A stretch of 64,000 nucleotides of DNA from an uncultured Collinsella sp. (GCA_902495545.1 CABUXM010000002.1:1674-65673), one strand, 5' to 3'. Counted from the stretch's first letter, positions 1 through 63,089 are shown. Notes: a model not told the origin generated them from the sequence alone. Numbers and translations: made by a program.

Positions 1-792
1 TCGGGCAGCGCGTGGGGCGGCCTGTCGAGGAAGGCCCAGGCACCGCCGAAGTAGTCCTCGGCTCCCGTCGAGGTGACCGTGGGGAACTCCTCGTCGCCGT
101 CGAGGAAGAACTTCATCTCGCCCTCGCCCCACCAATAGCGCTCCAGGGCGCACAGGGCCATGTAGGTGCCGACGTAGTAGCCCTTACCGCGCACGCCGTC
201 GAGCACGGTGTAGTCGACGCCCCTGCGGGTGCTGCGCTCGCGGTTAAAACGGGCGTGGAAGTACATGGCGTCGTCCGGCACGTCGGTGAGCGCGTAGTTG
301 AACGTGTAGAAGATGTACTTAATGAACCCGGGGTGCTCGCTCGTAAGCGTGACCTTGGCGTGCTTCCTGAAAGGCATCTCGAAGTAGCAGTTCATGCCGC
401 CCGTCGGGTTCACGCAGATGGGCATCGAGTTGACGATGGCGCGCTCACCGAAGCCGTTGCAGAAGAAGTCGCCGACAGGGCACTCGACCGAGGGGGTCTC
501 CTCGTCGTCCCAGTAGAAGCGCAGCACGAGGTCGCGCATGACGAAGCTGCCGGCGGCGGTCTTGTCGGGGACGGTCATCCAGATGTGGCGGATGATGCCG
601 GGGCCCTCGATGTCCGCGAGCGTGATGGTCTCGCCGGACTCAAGGGGCACGCAGCACGAGCCCTTGCGGCCGACGCCGAGGTGGCTGGCCGACATGGCGG
701 CACGGCCCTTCTCGCCCGTGATGTTCTCGGGGGTGATGGCGCGGCTTTCCTCACCGCCGTGCATCCACACGTCCTTAAGGAACTCTCTCATC
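1..792 (-). CDS. DUF2961 / glycoside hydrolase family 172-like protein (C-terminus lies outside the window)
   Basis: My own translation of the minus strand from ATG 792 gives MREFLKDVWMHGGEESRAITPENITGEKG...IRHIWMT...YWDDEE...FFCNGFG...YYVGTYM...WWGEGEMKFFLDGD, which is typical of DUF2961. An AGGAGG RBS lies upstream. The ORF is open to the window edge, so it is missing from the ORF track. Confidence 0.8.
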
Positions 793-3453: not shown

Positions 3454-6195
3454 TCACTCGTCGAACAGGAGGCTCGAGGAGCCGAGACGCTCCTCTCGCG
3501 CCGGGGCGGCGCTCACGCTGATGTAGTCGAAGACGTAGGCGATCTCGCTTACAGGAACCTCCACGCGATAGCGCGTCGAGATGCTCGAGAAACTCTGCCT
3601 GAAGGACTCGATGAAGTCGGCGTGCTCTTCCTCGAAGCGATCCTGGCCGACGTAGGTCTCGATGGGGTTGCGGGTGACGAGGCGCTCGACGAGGCAACAG
3701 AGGTGAACGTACAGCCCGATGATGGCGTTGCTGCCGATCTTCTCGCCCGTTCTGCGCTGAAGCTCGTGCACGGCGCTCTCGATCTCGTGGAACAGCCGCT
3801 CCGGGTCGAGGATGGTGATGGAGCGGATAACGTTCTGCAGCGTCATGTTCGAAAGCAGCTTCTCGTGAAAAGAAGCGAGCTCGGAGACGTCGAGCCACCT
3901 GCCGAACACGGCATCGACCTTCGAGGCGGACGCCGTCGACATAATGTCTTCGAGGGCGACGAAGGGAACGGAGGCAATCCCGGGGTCTCCCGTGCCGATG
4001 ACGGCGCAGACGCGGTGCTCGGAGAAAACGGCGTCGTTCGACCCGTTCGCGACGAGCTGCTTGAAGGGCCTCGTGAGCAGGCGCGCGCCTATGGTGCGCG
4101 GGAGGCTCTGCGAGACGAGCTGGCGTATCCTCTCCGCGGCGTCGACCCCGGACTCGGAGCAGAAGACGATGGCGTCCTCACGGTTGACGCGCTCGATCAC
4201 CTTGCAGTGCGTCACGCACGCGGCGGTCGCATCGCCAAGAACCTCGGCGATGGACTTGCCGCCGAGCAGCCCGACCCCGATCTCGAGCGCAAGACCGGTA
4301 GAGACGTTGTTCACCACGCCGATAGTGGAGTCGGTAACGTTCTCGAGGGCCTTATAGGCCTCCTCCAAGGAGCCCATGTCGACGAGGAACACGACCCCGG
4401 TGCAGTAGGAATGGCGGTCGACGAGGCGCTGGAGCGGACCGACGATGTCCTTCAGCTGCTGGTCGTAGGGCATGTCGACCGCCTCGTACACATGCATGCC
4501 GAGCATACGGTTCGCCGCGTCGGCGATGCTCGTCGCCGTTGAGTAGCCGTGGGACAAGATGACGCAGAGCGTTCGAAGGGCCTTCGCGTCGCGAGACTCC
4601 GATGCGACGCACAGCGTCAGAAGCGTCTTCGTGAAGTGATCGAGCGAGATTCCGAGTGCCCCTTCCATGTCTGCGGCGACCTGATCGGAGACGCTCGAGG
4701 CAAACGGCAATTCGGAGGTCACGGCACCGAGGAGATGGGAGATTTGCTCCGCACAGGCAGACTTTCGCTTAGCCAGGCCGATGCCCGGCCACAACTGCAG
4801 GCAAATCTCCTGGGCCAGCAGAAAAGCGACCTTCCTCGAAAGCTCGATGCCATAAGAAGAGCCTGCGTCGGCAAGGACCGCGCCCACGATGCGCTCGAAG
4901 GCGCGCGACCTCGAGGAGGTAACGCCGCGGCCGAAGATCAAGTGATCCTCAACGCCGCGCACAGCGGAGACAGCTTGCGAGACGAGCTCGGAGACAGAGA
5001 GCTCCCCGGCGCAGAATCGCTCATCGAGAGAGCACAGGGCATCGAGCGCCTGCTCGACCGGCCCTGTGCTCTCGGCGGCATCCAGGGACGCGTCGATCAG
5101 AACGCCATCGTCGGGCTGTTGATCGATCTGCGCGGAGGAGAGGAGCCCGCTGGGAAGAAGATACGGGCGAACGACGACGTAGTCGCCCTCGCGATTGAGG
5201 AACGCTTTGGCGCAGCAGTTCGTCACGCAGGCGCGCAAGCCGGCGATGTTATCGGAAAAGTCCGCGTTCACGAGGCAACGGTATGCGCCGCGGCTGATCT
5301 TCACATCAGAACCGATTCGGCACCCCTCGCTGCGCAGGAAGCTCAAGATGAGATCCTCGCGCTCCTCGGGGGTCCGCTCCTTGAGTGAGGGGACGCGGGC
5401 ACAGATGGGCATTTTGCTGTAGGCCGAGGAAACCTTCAGGTCATCGGCGGAAAGCGCCGTCGAAAGAACGAGGCGAGCGCGCGGCGCATCCTGGGAGGCA
5501 TCGAGCCCGAGGGCCGTCGCAAGGCAGTGCTCCATCGCAGAGGGAGAGAGTGCCTCGATGCCGTTGACAAAGACCACACCCCCGCGCGATTTCGCGATCG
5601 ACTCGTCAAGAAGCCCGTTGAACGAGGCGGCGTCCGGGACCCCGGCGCAGTCGATGCGCACATAGGAGGAGTCGCGGGACAGCAAGCCCTGGTTCTTGCC
5701 GTACTCGTACACAAGGCGAGAAAGGAAAGACTTACCGACACCCACGCCGCCGCTCAAGAGGATGGGCAGGCCAAACGGAGGGTACTGAACCGCAGCCTTG
5801 CACTGCTCGACAACGGAGCTGAGGCTCAGGTCGAAGCCCACGGCACGCGCGAAGTCGCGGTGATCGGCGATTCCCGTCGCCTGGATGAGGTCGGCGAGCG
5901 AGGCGTACTCGCTTGCAGAGAGCTTTACCTGAAAACGCTTCTGGAACGCGCGGCGATGAAAATAACGGACAGGCCTGCCCGCCACCTTAACCACAAGGCC
6001 GGCGCGAACAAGGTCGTTGACGTACTGGCTCGCCAGACTCCTGGAGATGATGAGTGTCTCGGCGATGTCGGAGGTGGACAGACGGGCAAGGTCGTCGAGC
6101 GAGACGGCAGAGGTGAGGGCCTCGAGATGCTCGAGAATCCTGTCCCTCATGTCGACGGGCTTCTTTGCCAAGCTGTCCTGTGCGGTCTTGTCCAT
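3454..6195 (-). CDS. LevR-like PTS-controlled transcriptional regulator (wHTH, degenerate AAA+ module, PRD and EIIA(Man)-like domains)
   Basis: 913 aa. It has a Walker A (GGVGVGKS) and an EIIA(Man)-like ILSHGYSTATS segment. It lies directly upstream of the Man-PTS operon. No GAFTGA motif is present, and Walker B reads FVNGIE. Confidence 0.75.
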   Translation of the reverse strand: MDKTAQDSLAKKPVDMRDRILEHLEALTSAVSLDDLARLSTSDIAETLIISRSLASQYVNDLVRAGLVVKVAGRPVRYFHRRAFQKRFQVKLSASEYASLADLIQATGIADHRDFARAVGFDLSLSSVVEQCKAAVQYPPFGLPILLSGGVGVGKSFLSRLVYEYGKNQGLLSRDSSYVRIDCAGVPDAASFNGLLDESIAKSRGGVVFVNGIEALSPSAMEHCLATALGLDASQDAPRARLVLSTALSADDLKVSSAYSKMPICARVPSLKERTPEEREDLILSFLRSEGCRIGSDVKISRGAYRCLVNADFSDNIAGLRACVTNCCAKAFLNREGDYVVVRPYLLPSGLLSSAQIDQQPDDGVLIDASLDAAESTGPVEQALDALCSLDERFCAGELSVSELVSQAVSAVRGVEDHLIFGRGVTSSRSRAFERIVGAVLADAGSSYGIELSRKVAFLLAQEICLQLWPGIGLAKRKSACAEQISHLLGAVTSELPFASSVSDQVAADMEGALGISLDHFTKTLLTLCVASESRDAKALRTLCVILSHGYSTATSIADAANRMLGMHVYEAVDMPYDQQLKDIVGPLQRLVDRHSYCTGVVFLVDMGSLEEAYKALENVTDSTIGVVNNVSTGLALEIGVGLLGGKSIAEVLGDATAACVTHCKVIERVNREDAIVFCSESGVDAAERIRQLVSQSLPRTIGARLLTRPFKQLVANGSNDAVFSEHRVCAVIGTGDPGIASVPFVALEDIMSTASASKVDAVFGRWLDVSELASFHEKLLSNMTLQNVIRSITILDPERLFHEIESAVHELQRRTGEKIGSNAIIGLYVHLCCLVERLVTRNPIETYVGQDRFEEEHADFIESFRQSFSSISTRYRVEVPVSEIAYVFDYISVSAAPAREERLGSSSLLFDE

Positions 6196-6921
6196 GACTT
6201 CTTACCTCCTTGTACAAGGAGTATAAGGGGAACACAGAGAACGGAAGGGGGCGCGTGGGGGAATCAACAGCCCCGAGGAGAAGTTCACCACTTGAGGGGC
6301 AGAAAACAACGGCCATTGAACATTCAGGGCCGACGCTCAACACTTCGGCTCGACACTTCGCTTTGGAAAGGGCCCTGCGCGATGGTGCAGCCCTCCATCT
6401 CGCAGCACAGGTCGCCGAAGGTCGCGAGGATGCGCTCCTTCTGTTCCGTGGGCGAGACGGCTCGGTGGGCAAGGTCCTCTCAAAAGGGGTCGTCCGACGC
6501 CGCAAGACCTCGATGACCGACTACCGCCTCGAGCAAGTGGCGGATTACCTCTGCACCATCGAACTTGCCTTGGTCAAGTGCGAGGCGAGGAGAACGGTGA
6601 GACGTACAACAAGTTCTTCGGAGGTATAGGCTCTTTCAAGAGGAACTGGCTCAAGCAAGCCCGCAGCAAGCGGATATAGGTGGTTCCGCAGTCTCGCAGG
6701 GAGCGGTCGTCTTTCCTCCGGCCAGGGCCCCAAGCGACACGCTTCGAGCAGCGATAGCGAAACGCAAGCAACGGCGTCGCGGGCGCCTCGTGCGCCATAG
6801 TGTCCATGTGGTCATCTCCTATCGTCTCAGCGTGGTAGCTGAAGATTCTAGGCGCTGGCCACACCCCTTTTCCGGGGCGCCAACACCAACATTTAGCACA
6901 CAAGGAGTTTGACGAGATGGC

Positions 6922-7506
6922 TCAGCGAGTATTGAATCTATCCGCCCATGCAGCCACGTCGAATAACTCCAGATTGGGGTAACTGACCGTTTCGCCCGTT
7001 TCTTTAAGACAGGCCTCCGCGGCGTTGCACAGCGAGCTCGCGAGCGACGCCGCATCAACGCGGAACGTCACGCTCTTAGTCGCACGCATCCCGCTCTTGG
7101 GCGACGGCCAGGAAGAGCAGAGGGCGTTGCACCCGTGGAGGACAAGCTCGAACTTGTAGTCGTAGTCGAAGCTCTCGTCTTTCTCGGGAGCATCGACCGA
7201 CACATCGTAGTCGCCTGAATGCAACAGGGAGCACCGGAGCTTCCAGCACATCTTCCCATTAAAGATTTGGCCTGGAATCGTTTCACCTTCGTTCGAGGGG
7301 TCTCCCGAAAACAGGAAGTCGTTTGCCGCCCAGTCATCAAACCACTTCACATACTGCCGCCCCGCCGCTCTCTTCCCGTTATGAAGGACGAGATTGGGGT
7401 AAAGAAGCTGCCCCATGGCGTCGGGAATGGTAAGGGAAGACATAAGGGCTGGGATAAGGCAGTCTTTCTCAACCGCATTTCTAATCGATTCGACGAGTAG
7501 CTTCAT
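6922..7506 (-). CDS. hypothetical protein (third gene of the island operon)
   Basis: 194 aa ORF, 28 nt downstream of the preceding ORF on the same strand. Codon usage is gene-like but less GC3-biased than the core genes. I recognise no family. Confidence 0.55.
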   Translation of the reverse strand: MKLLVESIRNAVEKDCLIPALMSSLTIPDAMGQLLYPNLVLHNGKRAAGRQYVKWFDDWAANDFLFSGDPSNEGETIPGQIFNGKMCWKLRCSLLHSGDYDVSVDAPEKDESFDYDYKFELVLHGCNALCSSWPSPKSGMRATKSVTFRVDAASLASSLCNAAEACLKETGETVSYPNLELFDVAAWADRFNTR

Positions 7507-7534
7507 TTCGATGCCTCAAAAAGTCTATGCGGTC

Positions 7535-8623
7535 TTATGCGAAGAAACGGCCGATCGGCCATGAGCCGAGCGTCGTTCGTGCCTCTTCGTCAAGTGACGC
7601 TCTGAGCGCAGAGGCCATGTCCGAGTCTCCGCGCAAGGCTGCTGCGCATGCTTTCGACAGCGCACTATCTGAATTCAGCTGGATTGCCATTAACTCAGAT
7701 TTCTCCTCGCTAGTAAGATCTCGCTTTCGAGCGGCAATTTGATATCGATTTATCAGGGTTGCCTCTCGATCCGCAAAAGCTTCCAGGGCGTCTACGGTCA
7801 TCTCGCAGCATTTCAGCAACTCTTCCTTACAGCACGCATCTTGATCGTAGGCTGATAGCATTTCAAGCATCTTGTCGTTGACGTAGGCAGAGCTAACTTC
7901 GGTGACTGGATACTGCTTCAACGTAGCGGCAAACACCTCGGCATCGATATTGGCAAGCCTCATATAGTCCTGCATCGTTTGGACGAACAGAGGCGCGACG
8001 ACTACGGGGGCATTCCCCTCGCCCCGGAAGAACACCGAGACCGTCAGGTCATCCAGTCGAAGCCCATCGACCATTCGGTACATATCTTCAGATACTTGGT
8101 AAAACACGAGCTTAATCGGATGGTTCCCCAGATTGATATATCCGAATCCGTTTTGCCGATCCTTGTAGTGGAGGGGTGCGTTCTCAACCAATCCCTTGTA
8201 AATTGTCTCGATGTTTCTTAAATCCTGAGTGGTCAACGCACTGATGTCGAGCTCTGGCTTGTAATGAAGAGCGTCGACAACCCGCTTGATAATCTCCAGC
8301 GACTGCAATCGACTCTCAAGGGCGTCGAGGTCGCCTCCGCTCAACTTGCACCCGCGAGCAAAGCCGCTTCCGTCTATGGAAAGCGTACCGGTTTGCATCA
8401 ATGCGCGCATGAGGGCCAACTCTTCCATGCGCTCGACAAGAGTTCCGGTCTCGCTGAGGGTGATTGTGTTGGTGGAGAGGCATATGTCGAAACCCCTGAA
8501 GAAAACGTGCTCGCCATTCTCATTTTCTCCGGCCATGACCACCGCATTTAGGGAAACATCACCAGAGCTGACGTCATGCCGAGACCCAATCGCGACGCCA
8601 ACTATGTTTTCAAGCTTATTCAA
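7535..8623 (-). CDS. hypothetical protein. Either a separate gene starting at TTG 8623 (a TTGA overlap with the upstream stop), or the C-terminal part of a frame-broken DUF4365 fusion.
   Basis: The frame is open from 8734 down to 7535. GGGAGAGAG lies upstream of TTG 8623. I recognise no domain. Confidence 0.5.
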   Translation of the reverse strand: MNKLENIVGVAIGSRHDVSSGDVSLNAVVMAGENENGEHVFFRGFDICLSTNTITLSETGTLVERMEELALMRALMQTGTLSIDGSGFARGCKLSGGDLDALESRLQSLEIIKRVVDALHYKPELDISALTTQDLRNIETIYKGLVENAPLHYKDRQNGFGYINLGNHPIKLVFYQVSEDMYRMVDGLRLDDLTVSVFFRGEGNAPVVVAPLFVQTMQDYMRLANIDAEVFAATLKQYPVTEVSSAYVNDKMLEMLSAYDQDACCKEELLKCCEMTVDALEAFADREATLINRYQIAARKRDLTSEEKSELMAIQLNSDSALSKACAAALRGDSDMASALRASLDEEARTTLGSWPIGRFFA

Positions 8624-9285
8624 GGGATACAGCTCTCTCCCCAGGGGCTCTTCCCGTAGATATACAGCCCGTTCCTGTATGGAGCCAAACTTGCGGGCGA
8701 CTCGCCCTCGAGCAGCTCGATTCCAAACTCGCACTCATCAAAGCAAAGGCCGGCGTCCTTAAATTCCTCGATTGTCTTGGGGGCGATGCCAGCGACTGCT
8801 CGCTGCTTTGCTCTGTCCTTGACCGCCCTTCTGACAAGCCGCGTCAATTCCGCCGCGTCTGTTGGAAGCCGGTCGAAACGCAAAGAGATGCGCTCTTGTT
8901 GCTCCGGAATATCGGCCAGAATCTTCTTTAGGTCATAGGGAAGCAAAAGTCTGTAGAAAACCTCCGCTGAACGAGCCTCGCTCCCACAGTAGACGTAAAA
9001 ATAGATGCAGCCTCCAGCAATGTTGAGATAGTGCTTGAGGTCTGAAACTCGAACTTGCCGCTTAGGTCGGTCCGATTTTCTTTTCGAAGTGGTCCCCTTG
9101 ACCTGAAGCGGCAACTGGCCTTCAACGGTCTCAATCGTGAAGGAAGAAGACGAGTAGACTTGCAGGTGCCCGTCGGTGCATTCGGTCTTGTCGTTCTCAT
9201 CTATATACGCATAGACGCAAGCGACATCGCCGAAAGCCTGCTTGACAGCATTGACCGCGTTCTGCTCGATTTTGCGATTGTCCAA
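8620..9285 (-). CDS. DUF4365-like (PD-(D/E)xK nuclease-fold) domain protein
   Basis: 221 aa with a TTG start after an AAGGAG RBS. The N-terminal pattern is E..AV..V...F....VYAYIDENDK.E.TDGHLQV...LPLQVKGTTSK, that is D...(Q/E)VK. This resembles DUF4365. Confidence 0.5.
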   Translation of the reverse strand: MDNRKIEQNAVNAVKQAFGDVACVYAYIDENDKTECTDGHLQVYSSSSFTIETVEGQLPLQVKGTTSKRKSDRPKRQVRVSDLKHYLNIAGGCIYFYVYCGSEARSAEVFYRLLLPYDLKKILADIPEQQERISLRFDRLPTDAAELTRLVRRAVKDRAKQRAVAGIAPKTIEEFKDAGLCFDECEFGIELLEGESPASLAPYRNGLYIYGKSPWGESCIP

Positions 9286-9374
9286 GCTTCTCCTTACTGT
9301 TTTAGATCGTCAGCAAACCGATGTCAGGCATGTTTCTCACTTGACCTAACTGCCTCGCGATGAATCGCATGGCC

Positions 9375-10640
9375 CTAGAGGAAAAAGTCCCTCGCGCTCA
9401 CGATGCGAATGCCGTCGATGTCCGTGTCGTAGGAACCCTGCCTCACGACCACGATCTTCTCGTGGTTGTCTCGTATCGACTTCAGAGGAGCGATCTCTCG
9501 CTCCCTGGTCTCGCTTGCGAACATCTCGTCAGTCACCTGCACGTAGAGTACGCGCCCGTCCTTCGTCGCGACGAAGTCGACCTCCTTGCCATAGAGCTTC
9601 CCCACATGCACGCTCCACCCCTCGTAGAGCAGCTGGAGATACACGGCGTTCTCGAACAGGCGCCCAGTATCCGTGACCCTATAGCCGGCCATCCAGGTCC
9701 TGAAGCCGGTGTCGACGATGTACTCCTTCGGGTTCGTCTTGAGGAGCGCCTTGCCGTGCAGGTCGTAACGCGTGGCGCGGTAGAACAGGAAGGCCTCCTC
9801 GAGCGCGCCCACGTACGAGAAAACGGTCTTGTTCGTGGTCTTCGACCCCGCAGAAGATAACGCACCGGCGATTCGGTTCGACGAGCACTCGTTGCCGATG
9901 TTGTCCGCCAGGAATTCGGCCACATGGCGCAGCAGAGAAGGGTCGGTCACCGCGCTTTTGCCCTTCCCGCGCTCGCGGTTGACGATATCGCGCACGGCGA
10001 TGGCCTCGTAGACTCCGGACATGTACGCCGAGTGCTGCGCCTGGGTCGTCGAGAGGGAGGCAATGGCTGGCATGCCCCCGTACTCAAGGTAACGAGTAAG
10101 CATGTCGTCGAAGAGAACAGGATTCCCTTCGGGAGTGAGAGCCACCGACCTTCCCGATACGAACTCAATTCCGCAGAAGTCAGCGAACTCGGAGAAAGAC
10201 AGGGGCAGCATCTTTACCTCTACGTAGCGCCCGGACAGATAGGTGGCCAGCTCGCTCGAGAGAAGATACGCGTTCGAGCCCGTGAGGTAGATGTCGCAAT
10301 CGAAGTCGACCCTCATTGCGTTGACCGCATCCTGCCAGCCATCGATTCTCTGGGGCTCGTCTATGAAAACGTAGGTGCGACCCTTGTCCGACAGGCACCC
10401 GCGAATGTGATCATAAAGTTGGTCCTCCGTCTTGATGCCCGTGCCCTTGCTTTCCAGGTTGACGCTCACAAAGCCGCGGCCAGCGACCCCTTCAGACTCG
10501 ACGGTCATCCTGATTAGGTCGAGGAGACTCGACTTGCCGCACCTGCGCACGCCCGTAATCACCTTGATGAGGTCGGTGTCACGGAAGAGCATCGCCTCCT
10601 CGAGGTACCTGTCGCGGTTCCTGAGTCTGCTGCATTTCAA
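9375..10640 (-). CDS. AAA-family ATPase with DUF4143-type C-terminal domain
   Basis: 421 aa. RDRYLEE...IKVITGVRRCGKSSLL is the P-loop and VFIDEPQ is Walker B. The probable start is TTG 10640, which follows an AGGAG RBS. Confidence 0.75.
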   Translation of the reverse strand: MKCSRLRNRDRYLEEAMLFRDTDLIKVITGVRRCGKSSLLDLIRMTVESEGVAGRGFVSVNLESKGTGIKTEDQLYDHIRGCLSDKGRTYVFIDEPQRIDGWQDAVNAMRVDFDCDIYLTGSNAYLLSSELATYLSGRYVEVKMLPLSFSEFADFCGIEFVSGRSVALTPEGNPVLFDDMLTRYLEYGGMPAIASLSTTQAQHSAYMSGVYEAIAVRDIVNRERGKGKSAVTDPSLLRHVAEFLADNIGNECSSNRIAGALSSAGSKTTNKTVFSYVGALEEAFLFYRATRYDLHGKALLKTNPKEYIVDTGFRTWMAGYRVTDTGRLFENAVYLQLLYEGWSVHVGKLYGKEVDFVATKDGRVLYVQVTDEMFASETREREIAPLKSIRDNHEKIVVVRQGSYDTDIDGIRIVSARDFFL

Positions 10641-10838
10641 GAGCTGCTCCTAAAACTCGAATCTGGTTACACTTTTAGGAGTATCATAACTCTGCGCCAC
10701 AAGATGAGCAAAGAGCGCACCTCGAGACGAATCGACTAAAGGGATTGCGCACCTGCCGGGAGGCAGGGCAGCTTGCTCGATCATCGCGGACTGCCAATTG
10801 CTAAACCCCAATAGCCGAAGCGCGCGGCGCTCGTTTCG

Positions 10839-11027
10839 CTACATCGACTTGATGGGATGGCGGATCACGGTCTTGAGCTTCTCTGGCGCGCACTTGCGCG
10901 GGTCGGAGAGGTAAATCTCGTGACAGAGGCGGGATTCGGAGAAGTCGGGCGCATATCCCCGTTCCGCCGCAAATGCACGCATGGCGCCTATGATCGTCAG
11001 CTCGTCATCGTAAGGCCAGTATAGCAA
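10839..11027 (-). pseudogene. C-terminal remnant of a GyrI-like / effector-binding domain protein
   Basis: 62 aa ending ...HEIYLSDPRKCAPEKLKTVIRHPI, the typical C-terminus of GyrI-like domains (normally about 150 aa). The N-terminal two-thirds are absent. Confidence 0.45.
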
Positions 11028-11093
11028 TGGGCGCGGATTCGTAAGAAGCCGCGCCCATTGGCAAACACTATAGCATAGAATCGAACGTCTGTT

Positions 11094-12692
11094 CTATTCC
11101 CACTCAATCGTCGCGGGCGGCTTGGACGTGATATCGTAGCACACGCGGTTGGCGCCGGGAACCTCGGCAACGATGCGGCCGGAGATGCGGGCCAATACGT
11201 CGTAGGGCAGCTTGGCCCAGTCGGCGGTCATGGCATCGCTGGACTCGACGGCACGCAGGATGATCGGGCGCTGATAGGTGCGCTCGTCGCCCATAACGCC
11301 AACGGACTTAATATCGGGCAGGACCGCGAAATACTGCCAGCAGCTGTGCTCGGAGTTGCGCTCGCCGGTCTGCTCAAACAGACGCTGGTTGTAGGCGTCG
11401 AGCTCCTCGCGCACGATGGCGTCGGCGTTCTTGAGGATCTCGAGCTTCTCCTTATCGACCGCACCGATGATGCGGATGGCAAGACCCGGGCCCGGGAAAG
11501 GCTGGCGGAACACGATATGACCCGGCAGGCCCAGCGCCAGACCAAGCGCGCGGACCTCGTCCTTAAAGAAGTGATCGAGCGGCTCGATGAGGTCGAAGTG
11601 CACGCCCTCGGGGAACGGGATCAGGTTGTGGTGGCTCTTGATGGTGGCCGTCTTGCCGCCCGTCTTGCGTGCGCCGGACTCGATGATGTCGGGGTAGATG
11701 GTGCCCTGAGCCAGGTACTTGACCGGCTTGCCATCGGTCTCGAGCTGCTGGGCCACGGCGAAGAACTCTTTCCAGAACTGCGTACCGATGATGCGGCGCT
11801 TCTGCTCGGGCTCGGTCACGCCGGCCAGAAGCTCGGCATAACGGTCCTCGGCGTGGACATGGATAAAGTCGACGTCAAACTGCTTGGTGAAGACCTCCTC
11901 CACCTGCTCGGGCTCGCCCTTGCGCAGCAGGCCGTGGTTGATGAACACGCAGGTCATCTGCTTGCCCACGGCACGAGCGCCCAGCGCAGCCACGACGGAG
12001 GAGTCGACGCCACCGGACAGGGCCAGAATCACGCGGTCGTCGCCGACCTTCTCGCGGAACTCGGCCGTCATGGTATCGACCAGGTTGTCCATGCTCCAGT
12101 TGGGCTCCAGGCCGCAGATCTCAAACAGGAAATTGCTCAGCAGCTGCTGACCGTACTCGGAGTGCTTGACCTCGGGGTGGAACTGCGTGGTAAAGATCTT
12201 GCGCTCGGGGCACTCCATGGCGGCAACCGGGCACACGTCGGTGCTGGCGGTAACGGTAAAGCCCTCGGGCACCTCGGAAACGGCGTCGCGGTGGCTCATC
12301 CACACGGTCTGCTCCATGGGCGTAGAGTTAAAGAGCTTGGCACCAGCCGTGCGCGTGATGGTGGCGCGGCCATACTCGCCCACCTCGGAGTGGCCGACCT
12401 TGCCGCCGAGCGTCACGGCCGTGATCTGATGGCCGTAGCAAAAGCCCAGGACGGGAAGACCCAGGTCAAAGATGGCAGGATCGATGGACGGAGCGTCCTC
12501 GGCATACACAGAAGCCGGGCCGCCGGAAAGGATGAGCGCAGAGGCGTTCATCTCGCGAATCTCGTCGGCCGAGATGTCGCAGGGGACAATCTCGGAATAC
12601 ACGTTGAGGTCGCGGACGCGACGGGCAATGAGCTGACCGTACTGCGCACCAAAGTCGAGTACGAGGACCTTTGCGGAAGCCTTTTGATCCAT
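11094..12692 (-). CDS. guaA: GMP synthase (glutamine-hydrolysing)
   Basis: MDQKASAKVLVLDFGAQYGQLIARRVR..., the LGFCYGHQ amidotransferase motif, the SGGVDSSV PP-loop, and a C-terminal ...ATIEWE. The start was set to ATG 12692, which follows a GAGGGGG RBS. Confidence 0.95.
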   Translation of the reverse strand: MDQKASAKVLVLDFGAQYGQLIARRVRDLNVYSEIVPCDISADEIREMNASALILSGGPASVYAEDAPSIDPAIFDLGLPVLGFCYGHQITAVTLGGKVGHSEVGEYGRATITRTAGAKLFNSTPMEQTVWMSHRDAVSEVPEGFTVTASTDVCPVAAMECPERKIFTTQFHPEVKHSEYGQQLLSNFLFEICGLEPNWSMDNLVDTMTAEFREKVGDDRVILALSGGVDSSVVAALGARAVGKQMTCVFINHGLLRKGEPEQVEEVFTKQFDVDFIHVHAEDRYAELLAGVTEPEQKRRIIGTQFWKEFFAVAQQLETDGKPVKYLAQGTIYPDIIESGARKTGGKTATIKSHHNLIPFPEGVHFDLIEPLDHFFKDEVRALGLALGLPGHIVFRQPFPGPGLAIRIIGAVDKEKLEILKNADAIVREELDAYNQRLFEQTGERNSEHSCWQYFAVLPDIKSVGVMGDERTYQRPIILRAVESSDAMTADWAKLPYDVLARISGRIVAEVPGANRVCYDITSKPPATIEWE

Positions 12693-31389: not shown

Positions 31390-31466
31390 GTCCCCATCGT
31401 CTAGCGGCCAAGGACGCCACCCTTTCAAGGTGGATATCGCGGGTTCGAATCCCGCTGGGGGCACCA
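31390..31466 (+). tRNA. tRNA-Glu (anticodon UUC), CCA encoded
   Basis: The cloverleaf was folded by hand. The acceptor stem is GTCCCCA/TGGGGGC, the anticodon loop is CTTTCAA, and the T-arm is GCGGG-TTCGAAT-CCCGC. Discriminator A and CCA follow. Confidence 0.9.
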
Positions 31467-42073: not shown

Positions 42074-45073
42074 TTATCGCTCGACGAGCACGCGGTTAAG
42101 CCTGCCCTCTACCAAGCGCTCGTACAGACGCCGCGTCTCGGGCTCGGGCACGCCATTGACCTGCTCCCTCAGGTGATGCATATGTCCACTGTACAGCTCG
42201 ACGATATCGCGTCGTCGCCCCGCCGCACCGTAGACGCGCATAGCGCAACGCACCATGTCCTCGCGCGTTGTCTCTTGCCGCAGCCCCGACTCCACCAGCC
42301 ATACCGCCGACTGTAGGTCGTTTTCTTCTAGGGCGGCATTCGCGCCCCGAATCATGCAGTCGATATACTTCGATTCCATAATGCGCCGCATACGCAAAAA
42401 GTAAGTGGGATTACAGCCATTGGGAACATACAACGGGCCGGCGTAGAGCTGCTCGATCTTAAGGCACAGCTCGACCAGATGGGGCCCGCGCGCACCCGTG
42501 CGATTTCCCAAAACTTCGCGGCTTATCTGATCAAACAACCGCACGTCAGTCTTGACGTAATCGCGGTTGAGTCCAATGCATTCATTTTGGATGAGCACAC
42601 ACGACTTGCCATCCGGCGTCGGTCCCAAAGCCGACCGCAAGCGCGATATCGTCGAGTACAGGTTGTTGCGGGCGCTATTGAACTCGGCATGGGGCCACAG
42701 CTCCATGGCCAGCGTCTCACGATCGACGAGCGCATCCATGCCCAGCGCAAGCCGCTCGGCAAGCGTCGCCGCCTTCTTGCGGCGCCACATTTTGTCCGTG
42801 ATGGGAAACCCGTCGCGCTCGGCGCGAAACGCACCGAACATGCGAATCTCGATATGGTCGATGGTATCAACGGCTTCAACCTCGCCGGCCTGAAATAAGC
42901 GCTCACCCTCCCCTTCCAAATCGTCGCGCAGCGAGTACCGCGACAGTTCGCGCACGGGAAGCTTCTTGCGTATCCTGGCCGCCGGCTCGCCCAGACAATG
43001 CATGGCAAGGCGCGCAAAGAGCCGATACGATGGCTCTAGAATCTCCGCACGATTCATGGACATCCAGGCCGCAAGATCGCTATCGCGGCCCGCGGAGGCC
43101 AAATGCAGCGCCACCATCCAAGCCTCGGCACCACCGACCTGCGTCCGACTCAAATCGAGCAGTTCTGCCTCTTCGCGCACCGATACCATCGATGTATTGC
43201 GTAAGTACGCCGCGCGCTCTAGCAGCAGTGCGTTGTCGCGTATGTATCCAATCGATTCCTCGGCAAGCCTAAGCACCTGCACCGCACGGAATTTGGCATT
43301 GACCGGACGCCCCTCAACCAACGACTGCCAGCCTTCTAGTATCAAGCCAAACAACTGGACTTGATTGTCACGCACGCGCACGGCAAAACGGTCGAGCTCA
43401 TTGAATGCCTGCTCGTCGGTCACCGGCATGCCGGCAAACAGACGCCGCGCCGATAACACCATGCGCACCCAGATGGCGAGCGCTCGGATTCCACGCGCTT
43501 CGAGTGCCTCGAGCGTCAGGGCCATCTCGTCGTCACGCTCGTCAGTCCCTGCATACGACCCATCAAATAGCTCCGTCAACATGCGGTCCGCGCGCACAAA
43601 CGTCCCCGCGATATCGAGTTCACAATCGTAGGCCTTATCCGTTTTGAGCCCCGCGAGGATCTCACCACCCTTCGCCCGCTCGGTCAGCCCATGCTTTATC
43701 TCGACATGTGCGGACAGCATGTCGAGTGCGACACAAGACGCTTCACTTTCCAACGCTGTATGGCTTGCCGGAAGCCCCAGACTACCATCTCCATAACAGG
43801 CGGCCGTAAACGCGTGCGCCACCTTCCACGACACGGGATCGAGCTCGCAAATCGCTTGCTCGCCCGCACGCTCGATAATTGAGGCCATGTACCGCGCGAG
43901 CTTTGTATTGGAGACGCTCACCGCCGCCAGATAGATGCCGAGCGCCTCGTCAGGCGTCGGCTCCGATGCCTGGCCATCTGCCTCGGTCTTTCCCAGCGCC
44001 GCGCGGCAGACATCCCCTCCATGCCCCGTCAGGGCCAGATCGACCCCATACTGCCCGGCAAGCTCCAACACCGCACTGCGGTCCAAAAACGCATCGGCGA
44101 TGTCCATCGCGGTATCGCAGCGCCCCGCTTTAATCAATATACGCGCCGCCCGCACAACGAGTTCGGGGCGAATTTCGGCGACCAACTTGCGCAATCGCAG
44201 GCGTGCGTTGTCCTCGGTACCCAAGCAGGTAAAGCTCCGGTCTGCCGGATCAACGCCAAAAATGGGATAATCACGGACAAGATAGGACTGGTCAATCGCC
44301 GAAAGCCTAACGCCGCAAGCCTCGAGCTCCGAAATATTGCCCTCACCCATTAAGACCATCAAGCACGCCACGCTAAACAGGGCATTGTTCTCGAGCGACG
44401 CCAGGTCGACAAGTGCCGCACCGTAGATATTGACGATCTCGTTTTCGAGCATCTGGGCAACGTCTCCCTGCCCGTATAGTCCCGACTGCATAGCCGAGAC
44501 GAGCTCGGGCACGCCCTGCGTAAGCTGATAAAAGTCGAGCGATGTGCTGATCGAAAACGCCGATGCCCACGCCGAATACTCATAGGCATGCACCTTGAGC
44601 ATCTGCGCGTTGACTTTAATCGAATCGCCCAGTCCATGAATCAGCTGGCGATTCGAAGGACGGCAGCTCATAAAGACCCCAACCCCCATAGCACGCAGGC
44701 TTCGGATTCGGTCAATCAACTCCTCGGTCTCGCTCTGGCTGAGGTTAGGCACGTTATCGATTGCAATCAGGGAGTGCGGCTTGTCCTTAAGCTCTTCGGT
44801 AACGACCTCGAGCTGCATAAACACCTCGCGCCCAATGGCGCGGTCTGCCTCGATGATCCGCACGGGACCTCGCGTCGGATCGCTTTTAACCTCTTGGGTA
44901 TACTGCAGCAGCACCGAGGTTTTCCCAAAGCCATCAGGCGCGTAGAGGACTACGATGCCGGCCTTTCGGCCCTTGGCGATAAGTTCGTTCATCAAGCGAT
45001 CGCGCCGCACCATATAGCTACTGCCCAGCGGCATAAGCTCGAGGTCGTCCGTATTGCCCAAATCGTTAACCAT
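42074..45073 (-). CDS. large STAND/MalT-like ATPase regulator with C-terminal OmpR-type winged helix plus BTAD (SARP) module
   Basis: 999 aa. The N-terminal P-loop is VVLYAPDGFGKTSVLL. The C-terminal ...IEIRMFGAFRAERDGFPI...WRRKKAATLAERLAL...SRLRSALGP is followed by a BTAD-like helical repeat ending ...LYERLV. Confidence 0.7.
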   Translation of the reverse strand: MVNDLGNTDDLELMPLGSSYMVRRDRLMNELIAKGRKAGIVVLYAPDGFGKTSVLLQYTQEVKSDPTRGPVRIIEADRAIGREVFMQLEVVTEELKDKPHSLIAIDNVPNLSQSETEELIDRIRSLRAMGVGVFMSCRPSNRQLIHGLGDSIKVNAQMLKVHAYEYSAWASAFSISTSLDFYQLTQGVPELVSAMQSGLYGQGDVAQMLENEIVNIYGAALVDLASLENNALFSVACLMVLMGEGNISELEACGVRLSAIDQSYLVRDYPIFGVDPADRSFTCLGTEDNARLRLRKLVAEIRPELVVRAARILIKAGRCDTAMDIADAFLDRSAVLELAGQYGVDLALTGHGGDVCRAALGKTEADGQASEPTPDEALGIYLAAVSVSNTKLARYMASIIERAGEQAICELDPVSWKVAHAFTAACYGDGSLGLPASHTALESEASCVALDMLSAHVEIKHGLTERAKGGEILAGLKTDKAYDCELDIAGTFVRADRMLTELFDGSYAGTDERDDEMALTLEALEARGIRALAIWVRMVLSARRLFAGMPVTDEQAFNELDRFAVRVRDNQVQLFGLILEGWQSLVEGRPVNAKFRAVQVLRLAEESIGYIRDNALLLERAAYLRNTSMVSVREEAELLDLSRTQVGGAEAWMVALHLASAGRDSDLAAWMSMNRAEILEPSYRLFARLAMHCLGEPAARIRKKLPVRELSRYSLRDDLEGEGERLFQAGEVEAVDTIDHIEIRMFGAFRAERDGFPITDKMWRRKKAATLAERLALGMDALVDRETLAMELWPHAEFNSARNNLYSTISRLRSALGPTPDGKSCVLIQNECIGLNRDYVKTDVRLFDQISREVLGNRTGARGPHLVELCLKIEQLYAGPLYVPNGCNPTYFLRMRRIMESKYIDCMIRGANAALEENDLQSAVWLVESGLRQETTREDMVRCAMRVYGAAGRRRDIVELYSGHMHHLREQVNGVPEPETRRLYERLVEGRLNRVLVER

Positions 45074-45455
45074 GCCCGCTCCTCAACTCGACCACATGGA
45101 CACCGTAACGCTAGACCATATGTATCGCTAGATGAATAGAGCGATGCTACGGTTTAGGATGTTTGTTGGTACGCAAATGGCAAGTTTTTGTTCAGCGTGG
45201 TCCGATTGAAACTTATCCCCCAACCAATCAGTCTTTGCGCAGGTCAATGCGCTTGCCAGCTTGTCCCATCCTTTGGCAGTGTACCTCAAATGAACGCTGT
45301 TCAATTATGTTGCGCAACTCACCTAGCGCCAGCTACCGTCTGCGACCTTTTCATAGCATTTATGCATAGTATCTGTTATGGAATGAATCATGCTGCACCA
45401 GACGCACCCGCCAAGTTCGCGGCAAGGTTTTCGTCAAGCACACGGCGTGCACTCA

Positions 45456-50978: not shown

Positions 50979-51342
50979 TGGTGGAGGCGCGGAGAATCGA
51001 ACTCCGGTCCACGAAAGCCCCCTGATTGGCATCTCCAAGCTCAGTCGCTGGTTTTTTCTCGGACGCTTTGCGCGCAGCGACACGCTCGCGGCGTCCTAAC
51101 CGGTTCGGTCTTAGCCTGCGCCATACCGATTACGTGCGCAGGAGCATTCCCCTAAAATGACGTCGCGCCGGTGTCGGGGAAATCACCGGGTTGACGTGCC
51201 GCTATAAACTAAGCAGCGAGAGCCATAGGCTCAAAAGAAGAGTTGTTGTCAATTCAATTTGACGGTACCCCTGTTTAACGAGGCGAGGAGACCTCGGCTT
51301 GCTTCCTCTCTCAGAGCTATCGTGTCGAAACCAGTCGCCCCC
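50979..51342 (-). ncRNA. ssrA: tmRNA (transfer-messenger RNA), about 364 nt
   Basis: The 5' end GGGGGCGACTGGTTTCGACA... pairs with the 3' end ...GGAGTTCGATTCTCCGCGCCTCCACCA, including the G3:U70 alanine identity pair. The tag reading frame at 51209-51250 encodes DNNSSFEPMALAA followed by a stop. Confidence 0.93.
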
Positions 51343-61518: not shown

Positions 61519-62883
61519 CTAAACGTCAAGATGCGCACAATCAAGCGCCTTTTTGATAAGAGGGACAGATCGATCAGCCAAATACAACGGAATGTTGAGC
61601 ACCCCGTCGTCGAGCTTTAGGTTCTTAAGCGAGTAGCGGACCCTCAATGGAGTCGTCTCCGCATGCTTGTCGGCATAGTACTTAAGGCTCTTGGAATAAA
61701 CGACCTCTCCCGATTTGACCTCGACGGGAACGATTTCGTTTCCGACTTGAATCAAAAAATCGACTTCGTGCTTCGGCTTCTCGTTTGTCCAATAACGCGG
61801 AGCAGCATCTAACTGTGAAAGTAATGCCTGAAGCACATAGTTCTCGGCGAACGAACCTTTGAACTCCGAAAATAGCGCATCCGAGATGGCAAAAGCGGAC
61901 GCATCCAGCCTTGCCATGCGGCGCAGCAAGCCGACATCAAGACAGTAGACTTTAAATGCCTTGAGGTCATCGTACGCAGAGAGCGGCACACCACCGGCAG
62001 CATTAAGGCGAACCGCCGTGATGAGCCCAGCATCGGCAAGCCATTCCAGAGCATCCTCGTATTCTCGAGCACGAGCCCCCTCGCGCACCGCACCCCAAAC
62101 GAACTTTTTGTTCTCGCGCGCCAACTGAGCTGGAATCGAGTTCCATATTTGCGAAAGCTTGGCGAACTGCGCACGGCCACCATGCTTGGCAAAATCGCGC
62201 TCGTAGGAATCCAAGAGATCAGACAACACCTTATCGACCTGAACGATATCGCCCGTCTCCACCCACCGGCCAAGAGCCTCTGGCATGCCGCCGCATGCAA
62301 AATAACGACGAAGATGCTCGACGAGACGGACATGGAAGAAATCGGGCACTGTCTCGATCTGATCCAGGCCGCCAAGGTATTCGTCGTAGTTTGCAGCGCC
62401 CTCGGCTTTCAGAAACTCGGAAAAGCTCATGGGGCGCATCTCCATGAACTCGACCTTTCCCACCGGAAAAGCGCTGGTCTCACGGGACAAGCGAACGCCC
62501 AACAAAGACCCTGCACATGCGACGTGATACTCGGGGGCCTCGTCACAGAAGTATTTAAGGGCGCCGACTGCAGAAGGACAATCCTGGATCTCATCAATAA
62601 TAAGCAGCGTCTCGCCGGGATCGATAGGCTGTCCAAGTGCCAGGGAAAGATTTGAGATGATCCGTCGAGGATCGCGCGTACCCTCGAAAAACTGAGCGTA
62701 CTCGCTCTGTACCCCAGGTGACGGCTCCTCGAGCGTCAGATACACGAAATTGATGTACGAGGTTCGGCCGAACTCCTTAAGCGCCCACGTCTTTCCAACC
62801 TGGCGCGCCCCCTTAAGGATAAGCGGCTTACGATATTCTGACGCTTTCCAAGCGTTAAGCTTGGCAATGATATCTCGCTGCAT
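61519..62883 (-). CDS. AAA-family ATPase with DUF4143-type C-terminal domain (second copy of this architecture)
   Basis: 454 aa. KPLILKGARQVGKTW is the P-loop and LLIIDEIQ is Walker B. The C-terminal ...HEVDFLI...VPVEVKSG is a PD-(D/E)xK-like motif. Confidence 0.75.
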   Translation of the reverse strand: MQRDIIAKLNAWKASEYRKPLILKGARQVGKTWALKEFGRTSYINFVYLTLEEPSPGVQSEYAQFFEGTRDPRRIISNLSLALGQPIDPGETLLIIDEIQDCPSAVGALKYFCDEAPEYHVACAGSLLGVRLSRETSAFPVGKVEFMEMRPMSFSEFLKAEGAANYDEYLGGLDQIETVPDFFHVRLVEHLRRYFACGGMPEALGRWVETGDIVQVDKVLSDLLDSYERDFAKHGGRAQFAKLSQIWNSIPAQLARENKKFVWGAVREGARAREYEDALEWLADAGLITAVRLNAAGGVPLSAYDDLKAFKVYCLDVGLLRRMARLDASAFAISDALFSEFKGSFAENYVLQALLSQLDAAPRYWTNEKPKHEVDFLIQVGNEIVPVEVKSGEVVYSKSLKYYADKHAETTPLRVRYSLKNLKLDDGVLNIPLYLADRSVPLIKKALDCAHLDV

Positions 62884-63089
62884 GGCCGAACCTCCCGCAA
62901 AGAAACTTCCGTAAACGTGATATTTCCCACATTTTACCCTAGGTAAAACGTGACATTTATCACATTTACGGAAGTTTTAAGCTCATTTCGCCACACTTTC
63001 ATCACATTCAAAAGGTGGAGGTGCCAGTGGCGCCTCCGTCACCATCTTTCCTATCAGCCCGCCTGACCCGAACGGCCGAGTCGTCACAG

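Follow-up and report, generated by a model that had tools for sequence, protein, structure and literature searches.

The segment between guaA and levR in a 64,000-nucleotide (nt) stretch of DNA from an uncultured Collinsella sp. (the whole stretch is referred to below as the window) carries a damaged copy of a large nuclease gene, which we call BIG. Our preferred account has two parts, held jointly and with moderate confidence. The 4.9-kb segment would be a variable accessory islet of human-gut Collinsella composed of pieces of differing origin, and the intact BIG protein would be a stand-alone, single-gene nuclease against invaders, representing a candidate defence family. The window itself holds a decayed islet with its central gene broken.

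Open reading frames (ORFs) were called in the window and compared with Pfam, NCBIfam, PADLOC v2.0.0 and PHROG profiles. An original prediction, made from the sequence of this segment, had described an A/T-richer defence island with a co-directional operon of three genes next to an AAA/DUF4143 ATPase. All of the ORFs that it listed were recovered on the minus strand at the same coordinates: 10839-11027 (62 codons), 9375-10640 (421 codons), 8620-9285 (221 codons) and 6922-7506 (194 codons), together with an ORF at 7535-8734 of up to 399 codons that overlaps the 8620-9285 ORF in a different frame. The interpretation of these ORFs has changed in several respects, the most important of which concerns the operon.

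One gene interrupted by a frameshift

The ORFs at 8620-9285 and 7535-8623 had been taken for two genes, one encoding a DUF4365-like PD-(D/E)xK protein and the other a protein of approximately 360 amino acids (aa) with no recognizable family. Three observations indicate that they are parts of one 582-aa gene. The PHROG 9827 profile (584 positions) is divided between them, with positions 3-162 matched by the 221-aa ORF and positions 254-576 by the next one. A search with the joined parts yielded 57 protein clusters, nearly all of 582-587 aa, one of which is 99% identical (P0001, an uninterrupted protein of 582 aa) and represents 1,774 sequences. Finally, a pattern count found GGAGAG in every one of the 78 related loci in which the site is present, and the window alone reads GGAGAGAG. 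When P0001 is aligned with the window by tblastn, the frame switches after ...YGKSPWGE; the remaining differences are only 2 residues in one segment and 6 in the other, and no second lesion is seen. The additional AG thus truncates the BIG protein after the nuclease domain. Hence the predicted operon of three ORFs contains only two genes, one intact and one with a frameshift. The supposed ~360-aa protein, which has indeed no Pfam, NCBIfam or PADLOC match beyond noise, is the C-terminal part of BIG, and the DUF4365-like ORF, which does match that family weakly, is a fragment rather than a whole gene.

An alternative explanation is that the frameshift was introduced in sequencing or assembly and that BIG of this strain is intact and functional. 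The lesion, two extra nt in a short GA repeat, is unique among 79 sequences, and the copy is otherwise almost the same as P0001, with no further lesion. Yet BIG is often disrupted independently elsewhere along its length (8 of the 71 related loci), so that real inactivation is plausible. Moreover, indels in dinucleotide repeats do not rank first among the errors of short-read assemblies. An error therefore appears somewhat unlikely to us, and the AG insertion is apparently one more event of BIG inactivation, unless it arose in sequencing. Phase variation at the GA tract was also considered and rejected, since the tract comprises only 3-4 units and has the in-frame length in 78 of the 79 sequences.

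A nuclease domain in a large family of constant architecture

The N-terminus of BIG is probably an active PD-(D/E)xK nuclease domain of the DREN type, as judged from sequence conservation and a structural model. DUF4365 was matched in 30 of 55 diverse BIG relatives at E <= 0.01 (best 4.2e-8). Among these 55 proteins, with identities of 20-39%, D38, G39, Q61 and K63 are invariant, and D32 is conserved in more than 90%. The acidic pair has the spacing D-x5-DG, slightly unlike the DxGxD...QxK signature of DUF4365; the QxK part is retained. The conservation in BIG fits the D...QxK signature of DUF4365. In the toxin EAT16, the same DUF4365 residues are required for toxicity (PMC11297309).

An AlphaFold2 (AF2) model of BIG, built on 24 homologues, has a predicted local distance difference test score (pLDDT) of 89.5 and divides into three regions (Table 1). 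In a Foldseek search of the PDB with this model, DREN-APAZ chains of SPARDA (short prokaryotic Argonaute, DNase/RNase-associated) systems took the top five and 13 of the top 15 places (9qcc, 9vx6, 9qbp, 9qbq, 9jsz and 9jt2; E 3e-4 to 4e-2, the five best 3e-4 to 4e-3; probability up to 1.0). A single alignment is confined to DREN and covers 140 columns with a root-mean-square deviation of 4.2 A.

The rest of the protein has no such relatives. Residues 170-582 yielded no match in Pfam, NCBIfam, PADLOC v2 or PDB sequences; against the latter, BIG gave nothing either as a single sequence or as a profile, and NCBIfam returned nothing for any of the four islet proteins. This region nevertheless contains invariant positions, N445, D480, N512, Q515, R519 and P576, which include an N-x2-Q-x3-R motif. 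An exhaustive profile search with the C-terminal 410 residues alone retrieved at least 2,317 clusters (50% identity) at E <= 1e-3, and 1,035 clusters at E <= 1e-30. Of the best 150 clusters, nearly every one is 575-620 aa long and matches at approximately residues 170-590. The uniform length and position of the match show that the architecture, a nuclease followed by the C-terminal region, is fixed. One of the 55 members examined bears an additional DUF1016/PDC-S02 domain.

The family is found in Actinomycetota, Bacillota and Candidatus Xenobia, and on plasmids and in phages. In RefSeq its members are labelled "DUF4365 domain-containing protein" or "hypothetical protein". The profile searches that had been suggested as a check assigned no housekeeping or metabolic family to BIG or to its downstream neighbour, ORF C. 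PADLOC matches to AbiGii, obtained for the split ORFs and the 55 members at E 1.6e-4 to 6.6e-3, were rejected as noise. Literature searches on DUF4365, on DREN with anti-phage, and on DUF4143 with defense returned no description of the BIG architecture. It is plausible from these comparisons that BIG constitutes a previously unnamed family of the sensor-coupled type of nuclease defence proteins.

Genomic neighbourhoods and recurrent inactivation

Sixteen contexts with mutually diverged copies of BIG were compared (Table 1). Twelve of them are of the defence type, with the Rathayibacter plasmid counted as doubtful, and BIG is usually solitary. The neighbours include known or candidate defence genes such as GmrSD, Shedu, Gabija-like, Hhe and PifA. 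Thus, the defence-island signature seen by the original prediction stands insofar as the segment is accessory, relatives of BIG reside in defence islands across phyla and the adjacent ATPase matches the defence candidate PDC-S01; the multi-gene system that was part of that prediction does not. The cognate methyltransferase that consistently accompanies the nuclease in classical restriction-modification is no constant neighbour here: methyltransferase genes adjoin BIG in only 3 of the 16 contexts, and none is present in the window. No Piwi or Argonaute family occurs among the called neighbours in any of the 16 contexts; in the window, BIG is surrounded by ORF C, the ATPase, guaA and levR.

A DUF262/GmrSD_N-type gene of the GmrSD/Orf5/HEC-06 kind lies 5' of BIG in three clades, whose BIG proteins are 31-86% identical to that of the window (L007:7134-7976, L009:6208-7350 and L100:4742-6829). 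It abuts BIG in L007 and L100; in L009, approximately 650 nt and a transposase fragment intervene. The L007 gene encodes the N-terminal domain only. This proximity could be due to clustering in islands or to a functional link in which BIG serves as the nuclease.

Within Collinsella, BIG appears to be both maintained and frequently lost. Its ratio of nonsynonymous to synonymous substitution rates (dN/dS) is 0.25, estimated from lineages of 99% and 96% identity. At the same time, premature stops interrupt it in 8 of the 71 complete loci of the Collinsella type, at no fewer than seven positions (L062, L070, L077, L078, L079, L080, L085 and L089). Of its neighbours, ORF C is broken in 1 of 69 loci and the ATPase in 1 of 71, so that BIG is broken approximately eight times as often. 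Some of these stops could be errors of metagenome assembly. Taken together, selective upkeep and frequent knock-out suggest a gene that is useful yet costly or self-toxic.

Proposed function and alternatives

We infer a defence role for intact BIG, sensing by its C-terminal part and activation triggered by oligomerization. In the proposed mechanism, the N-terminal DREN/DUF4365 PD-(D/E)xK domain would act as the effector that cuts DNA. The remainder of approximately 410 residues, that is, the beta-rich middle region and the helical domain with the N-x2-Q-x3-R motif, would sense a cue of infection. Sensing would lead to self-association of BIG, bring the nuclease domains together and switch on DNA cleavage. 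The outcome would be either abortive infection or destruction of the invader DNA.

Several points weigh against this proposal. The oligomerization-dependent step is borrowed from SPARDA, where DREN, monomeric and inactive when isolated, degrades DNA non-specifically as a tetramer (bioRxiv 10.1101/2025.04.08.647717). The match of the 221-aa fragment to DUF4365 (PF14280; E 5.6e-5) scores 23.7 bits, below the gathering threshold of 24.3, and intact P0001, at 21.1 bits, is likewise just under it. Longer Foldseek alignments to DREN-APAZ extend over 435-547 columns with better E-values than the DREN-only one; their TM-scores are 0.2-0.28, and at such global values the similarity to SPARDA chains is demonstrable for the nuclease domain only. 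PADLOC v2.0.0 has no model for the 55 family members, in agreement with the original remark that no named system has this composition; this release dates from 2023, and later naming is possible. Four of the 16 contexts count as ordinary housekeeping surroundings; in those of L099, L093/L095 and L096, BIG is accompanied by housekeeping genes only. The copy of BIG in the window is apparently inactive if the frameshift is real.

The main rival to sensing followed by self-association is direct recognition of marked foreign DNA. Here, BIG would be a restriction-type enzyme whose C-terminal region reads a feature of foreign DNA, such as modified bases, and whose nuclease then cuts without self-assembly or cell death. 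The combination of a nuclease with a separate sensor is typical of modification-dependent endonucleases (PMC12191111), a cognate methyltransferase is missing in most contexts, and type IV enzymes of the GmrSD type repeatedly adjoin BIG. Against it, no known reader domain for DNA modifications (SRA, EVE, YTH, winged helix or iEndoIII) was detected in any of the 55 members. Further, the excess of broken BIG copies over broken neighbours suggests self-toxicity, and in the one setting in which DREN has been studied its nuclease activity is non-specific and controlled by assembly. We regard this rival as unlikely.

Another scenario makes BIG an Argonaute-independent relative of the SPARDA effectors. 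The protein would combine DREN with an APAZ-like middle region, the C-terminal helical sensor would replace Argonaute, and activation would proceed through assembly of filaments or tetramers. SPARDA DREN-APAZ chains are the best and almost the sole significant structural matches of BIG; yet there is no sequence similarity beyond the nuclease domain, and the APAZ-like nature of the middle region is unproven. We consider this scenario quite improbable. If true, it would define a stand-alone branch of Argonaute-associated effectors and would bear on the assembly of short prokaryotic Argonaute (pAgo) systems.

It is also conceivable that BIG has no role in defence and is a nuclease of mobile elements, acting in addiction, competition or recombination, or a DNA repair enzyme, and that the islands are merely shared hot spots of integration. 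Copies of BIG do occur on plasmids and in phage, excisionase-like HTH_17 genes, insertion sequence (IS) fragments and relaxases are found near it, and four contexts are devoid of defence genes. In most contexts, however, bona fide defence genes immediately adjoin BIG. BIG itself is solitary, with no conserved integrase, relaxase or replication partner across contexts, and the constant architecture coupled with rapid divergence (20-39% identity in the 55 members) is typical of immune genes. A non-defence role is very improbable in our estimation.

The islet and its other genes

The islet was described as less GC-rich and less biased at third codon positions than the flanking core genes. This is true of a part of it. 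The GC content is 0.51-0.55 across approximately 7250-9500 compared with 0.62-0.65 in the flanks, and BIG and ORF C have values of 0.52-0.56. The GC content at third codon positions (GC3) is 0.61-0.64 in the two BIG fragments and 0.69 in ORF C; that of the ATPase, 0.815, is core-like (0.82 in levR and 0.84 in guaA). The foreign composition is limited to BIG and ORF C, approximately 2.4 kb rather than the whole 4.8 kb.

Table 1. Features of the islet and its borders, regions of the BIG protein, and contexts of diverged BIG copies
Feature	Position	Strand	Description
levR	3454-6195		flanking core gene; Pfam PRD and EIIA-man domains
DUF3800 gene C-terminal remnant	6456..6680	+	frame-broken; downstream edge of imported block
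ORF C	6922..7506	-	intact, 194 aa; 28 nt 3' of BIG; own GAGG ribosome-binding site
BIG	7535..9285	-	frameshift-disrupted copy of 582-aa gene
BIG C-terminal fragment	7535..8632	-	~365 codons, out of frame with N-terminal part
BIG N-terminal fragment	8620..9285	-	221 codons, nuclease domain
Frameshift site	8633..8640	-	GGAGAGAG vs GGAGAG in relatives; +AG in short GA repeat; creates stop 8620-8622
ATPase	9375..10640	-	intact, 421 aa; 89 nt upstream of BIG; AAA_14 1.2e-28, DUF4143 7.8e-17
GyrI-like gene remnant	10839..11027	-	62 codons, C-terminal third of domain only; Pfam PF06445 E 2.6e-4, profile 102-155 of 155
Hairpin after guaA	11025..11060	.	inverted repeat I4; 16-nt arms, 94% complementary, 4-nt loop
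guaA	11094-12728		flanking core gene
BIG, probable DREN/DUF4365-like PD-(D/E)xK nuclease domain	residues 1 to ~165		alpha/beta in AF2 model
BIG, middle region	residues ~170-430		beta-rich with helical inserts (AF2 model)
BIG, C-terminal domain	residues ~431-582		nine helices (AF2 model)
Context 1, Collinsella block			PDC-S01 ATPase
Context 2, L007			DUF262/GmrSD_N gene directly upstream; Abi_2 nearby
Context 3, L100			full GmrSD/Orf5, E 7.6e-168, directly upstream; ResIII helicase
Context 4, L009			FRG and GmrSD_N upstream; OLD-TOPRIM and UvrD downstream
Context 5, L106			giant STAND NTPase; PifA-like KAP NTPase; CTD12/MC/DUF2326
Context 6, L104			PDC-M37A/B; AbiEi_4; helicase; IS110
Context 7, L014			Shedu; T5orf172; SNIPE
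Context 8, L016			PLD-helicase; RT and PRTase; methyltransferase
Context 9, Clostridium phage D-1873			SEFIR protein
Context 10, Clostridium drakei			Hhe/PDC-S37 giant helicase-nuclease
Context 11, Schaedlerella			N6_N4 methyltransferase
Context 12, C. glutamicum plasmid (BIG homologue WP_040968245.1)			large methyltransferase; Shedu
Context 13, Rathayibacter plasmid			PDDEXK nuclease; relaxase; doubtful as defence
Contexts 14-16, L099, L093/L095, L096			housekeeping genes only

A single search across species-representative genomes yielded 80 loci. Approximately 70 of them are from Collinsella (C. aerofaciens and relatives) and contain the GyrI remnant, the ATPase, BIG and ORF C with 96-100% protein identity and identical spacing. 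In many of these loci the block is flanked by guaA and levR, at 98-100% identity, which places the window in Collinsella. In some genomes, variable cargo is inserted between guaA and the block (L022:3608-8060, L036:3641-7744). One version of the cargo encodes a tyrosine integrase, a VapE-like protein and a helix-turn-helix (HTH) regulator, another an ABC-F ATPase, an MFS transporter and a 257-aa protein without assigned function. The guaA-proximal site is an integration hot spot. A second Collinsella context (L001-L006) retains only a C-terminal remnant of the ATPase upstream of BIG.

Both edges of the islet bear gene fragments, which we propose to be scars of past rearrangements. The truncated GyrI-like gene was correctly recognized as such in the original prediction: only the last 54 profile positions are matched, and the remnant is 86-95% identical among Collinsella loci. 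At the other edge, the frame-broken coding debris noted between levR and ORF C proved to include the C-terminal remnant of a DUF3800 gene. Its counterpart in L001 is intact (224 aa; DUF3800 E 4.9e-7) and lies beside the same pair of BIG and ORF C; aligned with the window by tblastn, this protein matches in two frames. The window DNA at 6456-6950 is 92% identical to the L001 region 3' of BIG and ORF C, comprising the end of ORF C and the DUF3800 C-terminus.

In L001, two DUF3800-like genes in inverted orientation, L001:6051-6620 (+) and L001:9683-10357 (-), flank BIG and ORF C and have near-identical N-termini (…IFVDESGDRGGKARYYLL…). This pair may be a recombination substrate that moved BIG and ORF C, the window holding the remnant of one of the two. 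The hairpin after guaA is likely its terminator, marking the border between the islet and the core genome. No convincing direct repeats or att-like sites bound the islet, and there is no tRNA gene nearby. Promoter and terminator scans of 6100-11200 gave results no better than those for shuffled sequence.

ORF C encodes a small protein under purifying selection (dN/dS 0.10-0.13). It matches PHROG 18591 (E 8.5e-12), has 51 relatives with identities down to 38%, and belongs to an uncharacterized family in which the motifs MCxxLRCSLLHSG and ELxxHxCN are invariant. No match was found in Pfam, NCBIfam or PADLOC. Its AF2 model is alpha/beta (pLDDT 75.6) and matches no PDB fold at E < 0.5; in BFVD, it matches two uncharacterized phage proteins only. 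An Rx4-6H motif, R91-x4-H96, is present within LRCSLLH and is invariant in the 14 homologues; the motif alone is weak evidence. A HEPN RNase was considered for ORF C and rejected: Rx4H is present, but the model is alpha/beta, and HEPN profile and fold matches are absent.

Co-occurrence of the predicted partner genes across genomes does not extend far. In a profile search, ORF C adjoins BIG only where BIG is at least 83% identical. A local hidden Markov model (HMM) search of six-frame ORFs detected no divergent ORF C beside distant copies of BIG. Copies of BIG at 57%, 37%, 31% and 21-25% identity lack ORF C; the copy at 57% is solitary, and at 37% and 31% other small genes come next. Homologues of ORF C also follow unrelated genes, namely a RE_endonuc fragment beside a type I restriction-modification system and a pair of genes encoding 384 and 76 aa. 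Because co-occurrence and synteny are not kept across the family, BIG and ORF C do not constitute an obligate two-gene system. To judge from these comparisons, ORF C is a lineage-specific accessory gene or a separate small module.

The 384- and 76-aa pair belongs to a compact cluster at L109:1404-3284 (also in L110 and L111). Its three genes encode 384, 76 and 186 aa, and their stop and start codons overlap; the last gene is a homologue of ORF C with 61% identity. Neither of the other two has a Pfam or PADLOC match or is related to BIG. A relationship of the 384-aa gene to BIG was rejected (hhalign probability 0.4%). The cluster may be a further uncharacterized module that uses the same small protein.

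The assignment of the gene upstream of BIG to AAA ATPases with a DUF4143 domain was borne out by both Pfam families. Over residues 6-421 the protein also matches positions 10-407 of 412 in the PADLOC PDC-S01 model PDLC04787 (E 2.8e-138). It accompanies BIG only in Collinsella-type loci of the 96-100% group and is absent from every other context. On this comparative evidence we treat it as an independent neighbour, a defence candidate of the PDC-S01 type, and not as a partner of BIG. The window contains a paralogue at 61522-62976 (-), a 485-aa protein with AAA_14 and DUF4143 (GC 0.53, GC3 0.59; PDLC04786, PDC-S01, E 9.6e-165). The two ATPases are 27% identical, and the paralogue looks compositionally foreign.

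A three-gene defence operon, consisting of the DUF4365 protein, the ~360-aa protein and the 194-aa protein and acting with the ATPase as one system, is highly improbable, and comparison across genomes already refutes it in large part. In its favour, the genes run in one direction and are closely spaced, the whole block is spaced identically in approximately 70 Collinsella species genomes and an ATPase remnant precedes BIG in L001-L006 as well. Against it, the supposed first and second genes are a single gene interrupted by a frameshift found in the window alone, ORF C is missing beside BIG copies of 57% identity or less and follows unrelated genes elsewhere, and the ATPase is missing outside the 96-100% Collinsella group, has host-like GC3 and has a second paralogue in the window.

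Elsewhere in the window, a tmRNA gene at 50979-51342 (-), with the tag peptide ARQPGDFPDTGATSF, and a tRNA-Glu(ttc) gene at 31390-31466 (+) are ordinary and unrelated to the islet. A 1,002-aa ORF at 42077-45082 (-), with a C-terminal BTAD domain and a slightly lowered GC3 (0.70), resembles large regulators of the SARP/AfsR type.

Implications and comparison with known systems

If the proposed function is correct, a widespread single-gene family of at least 2,300 clusters (50% identity) would be added to the anti-phage repertoire, and the DREN nuclease, hitherto studied only as an Argonaute-guided effector of SPARDA, would also be used with a protein-intrinsic sensor. The presence of the block in approximately 70 species-level genomes of Collinsella and the elevated inactivation of BIG suggest an actively traded, costly immunity gene in a genus common in the human gut. 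Its single-gene nature would make BIG easy to test. The family is large, but it is one of many such candidates.

Among known systems, the closest likeness is to the DREN-APAZ proteins of SPARDA, although BIG is not itself a SPARDA member. In both, an N-terminal DUF4365/DREN nuclease with the acidic and QxK signature is followed by a non-catalytic region in one chain, and both are plausibly gated nucleases against invaders. SPARDA has an adjacent gene for a short Argonaute (MID-PIWI), which forms a heterodimer with the effector; such a gene is found beside BIG in 0 of the 16 contexts. In addition, BIG exceeds DREN-APAZ in length by approximately 170 residues, and its C-terminal helical domain has no counterpart there.

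Shedu SduA, type IV enzymes and END nucleases resemble BIG in having a nuclease effector and a sensing region on one chain and in being encoded by stand-alone genes in defence islands or mobile elements. They differ in nuclease family and domain order: Shedu carries DUF4263 at its C-terminus, GmrSD joins DUF262 to an HNH-like domain, and the END nucleases consist of PLD and an inactive EndoIII. The END nucleases were considered as relatives of BIG and found to be an unrelated PLD and iEndoIII family. None of the models of Shedu, type IV, END and GmrSD-type systems matches BIG. The defence candidate PDC-S01 (AAA_14 and DUF4143, COG1373-like) is matched end to end, with both domains, by the ATPase of the window; here it is a neighbour of BIG with which a partnership is not demonstrable. 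PDC-S01 is a candidate only, and we know of no published mechanism or phenotype for it.

Finally, Divona, from an integron cassette, and EAT16, a toxin of an extracellular contractile injection system (eCIS), share with BIG the use of an N-terminal DUF4365 module as a toxic or defensive effector. In Divona, DUF4365 and an Mrr-like nuclease are fused to a crr6 domain, and EAT16, which is injected as a toxin, has another kind of C-terminal part. The C-terminal region of BIG, approximately 410 residues that are absent from both, marks a separate and uniform family.

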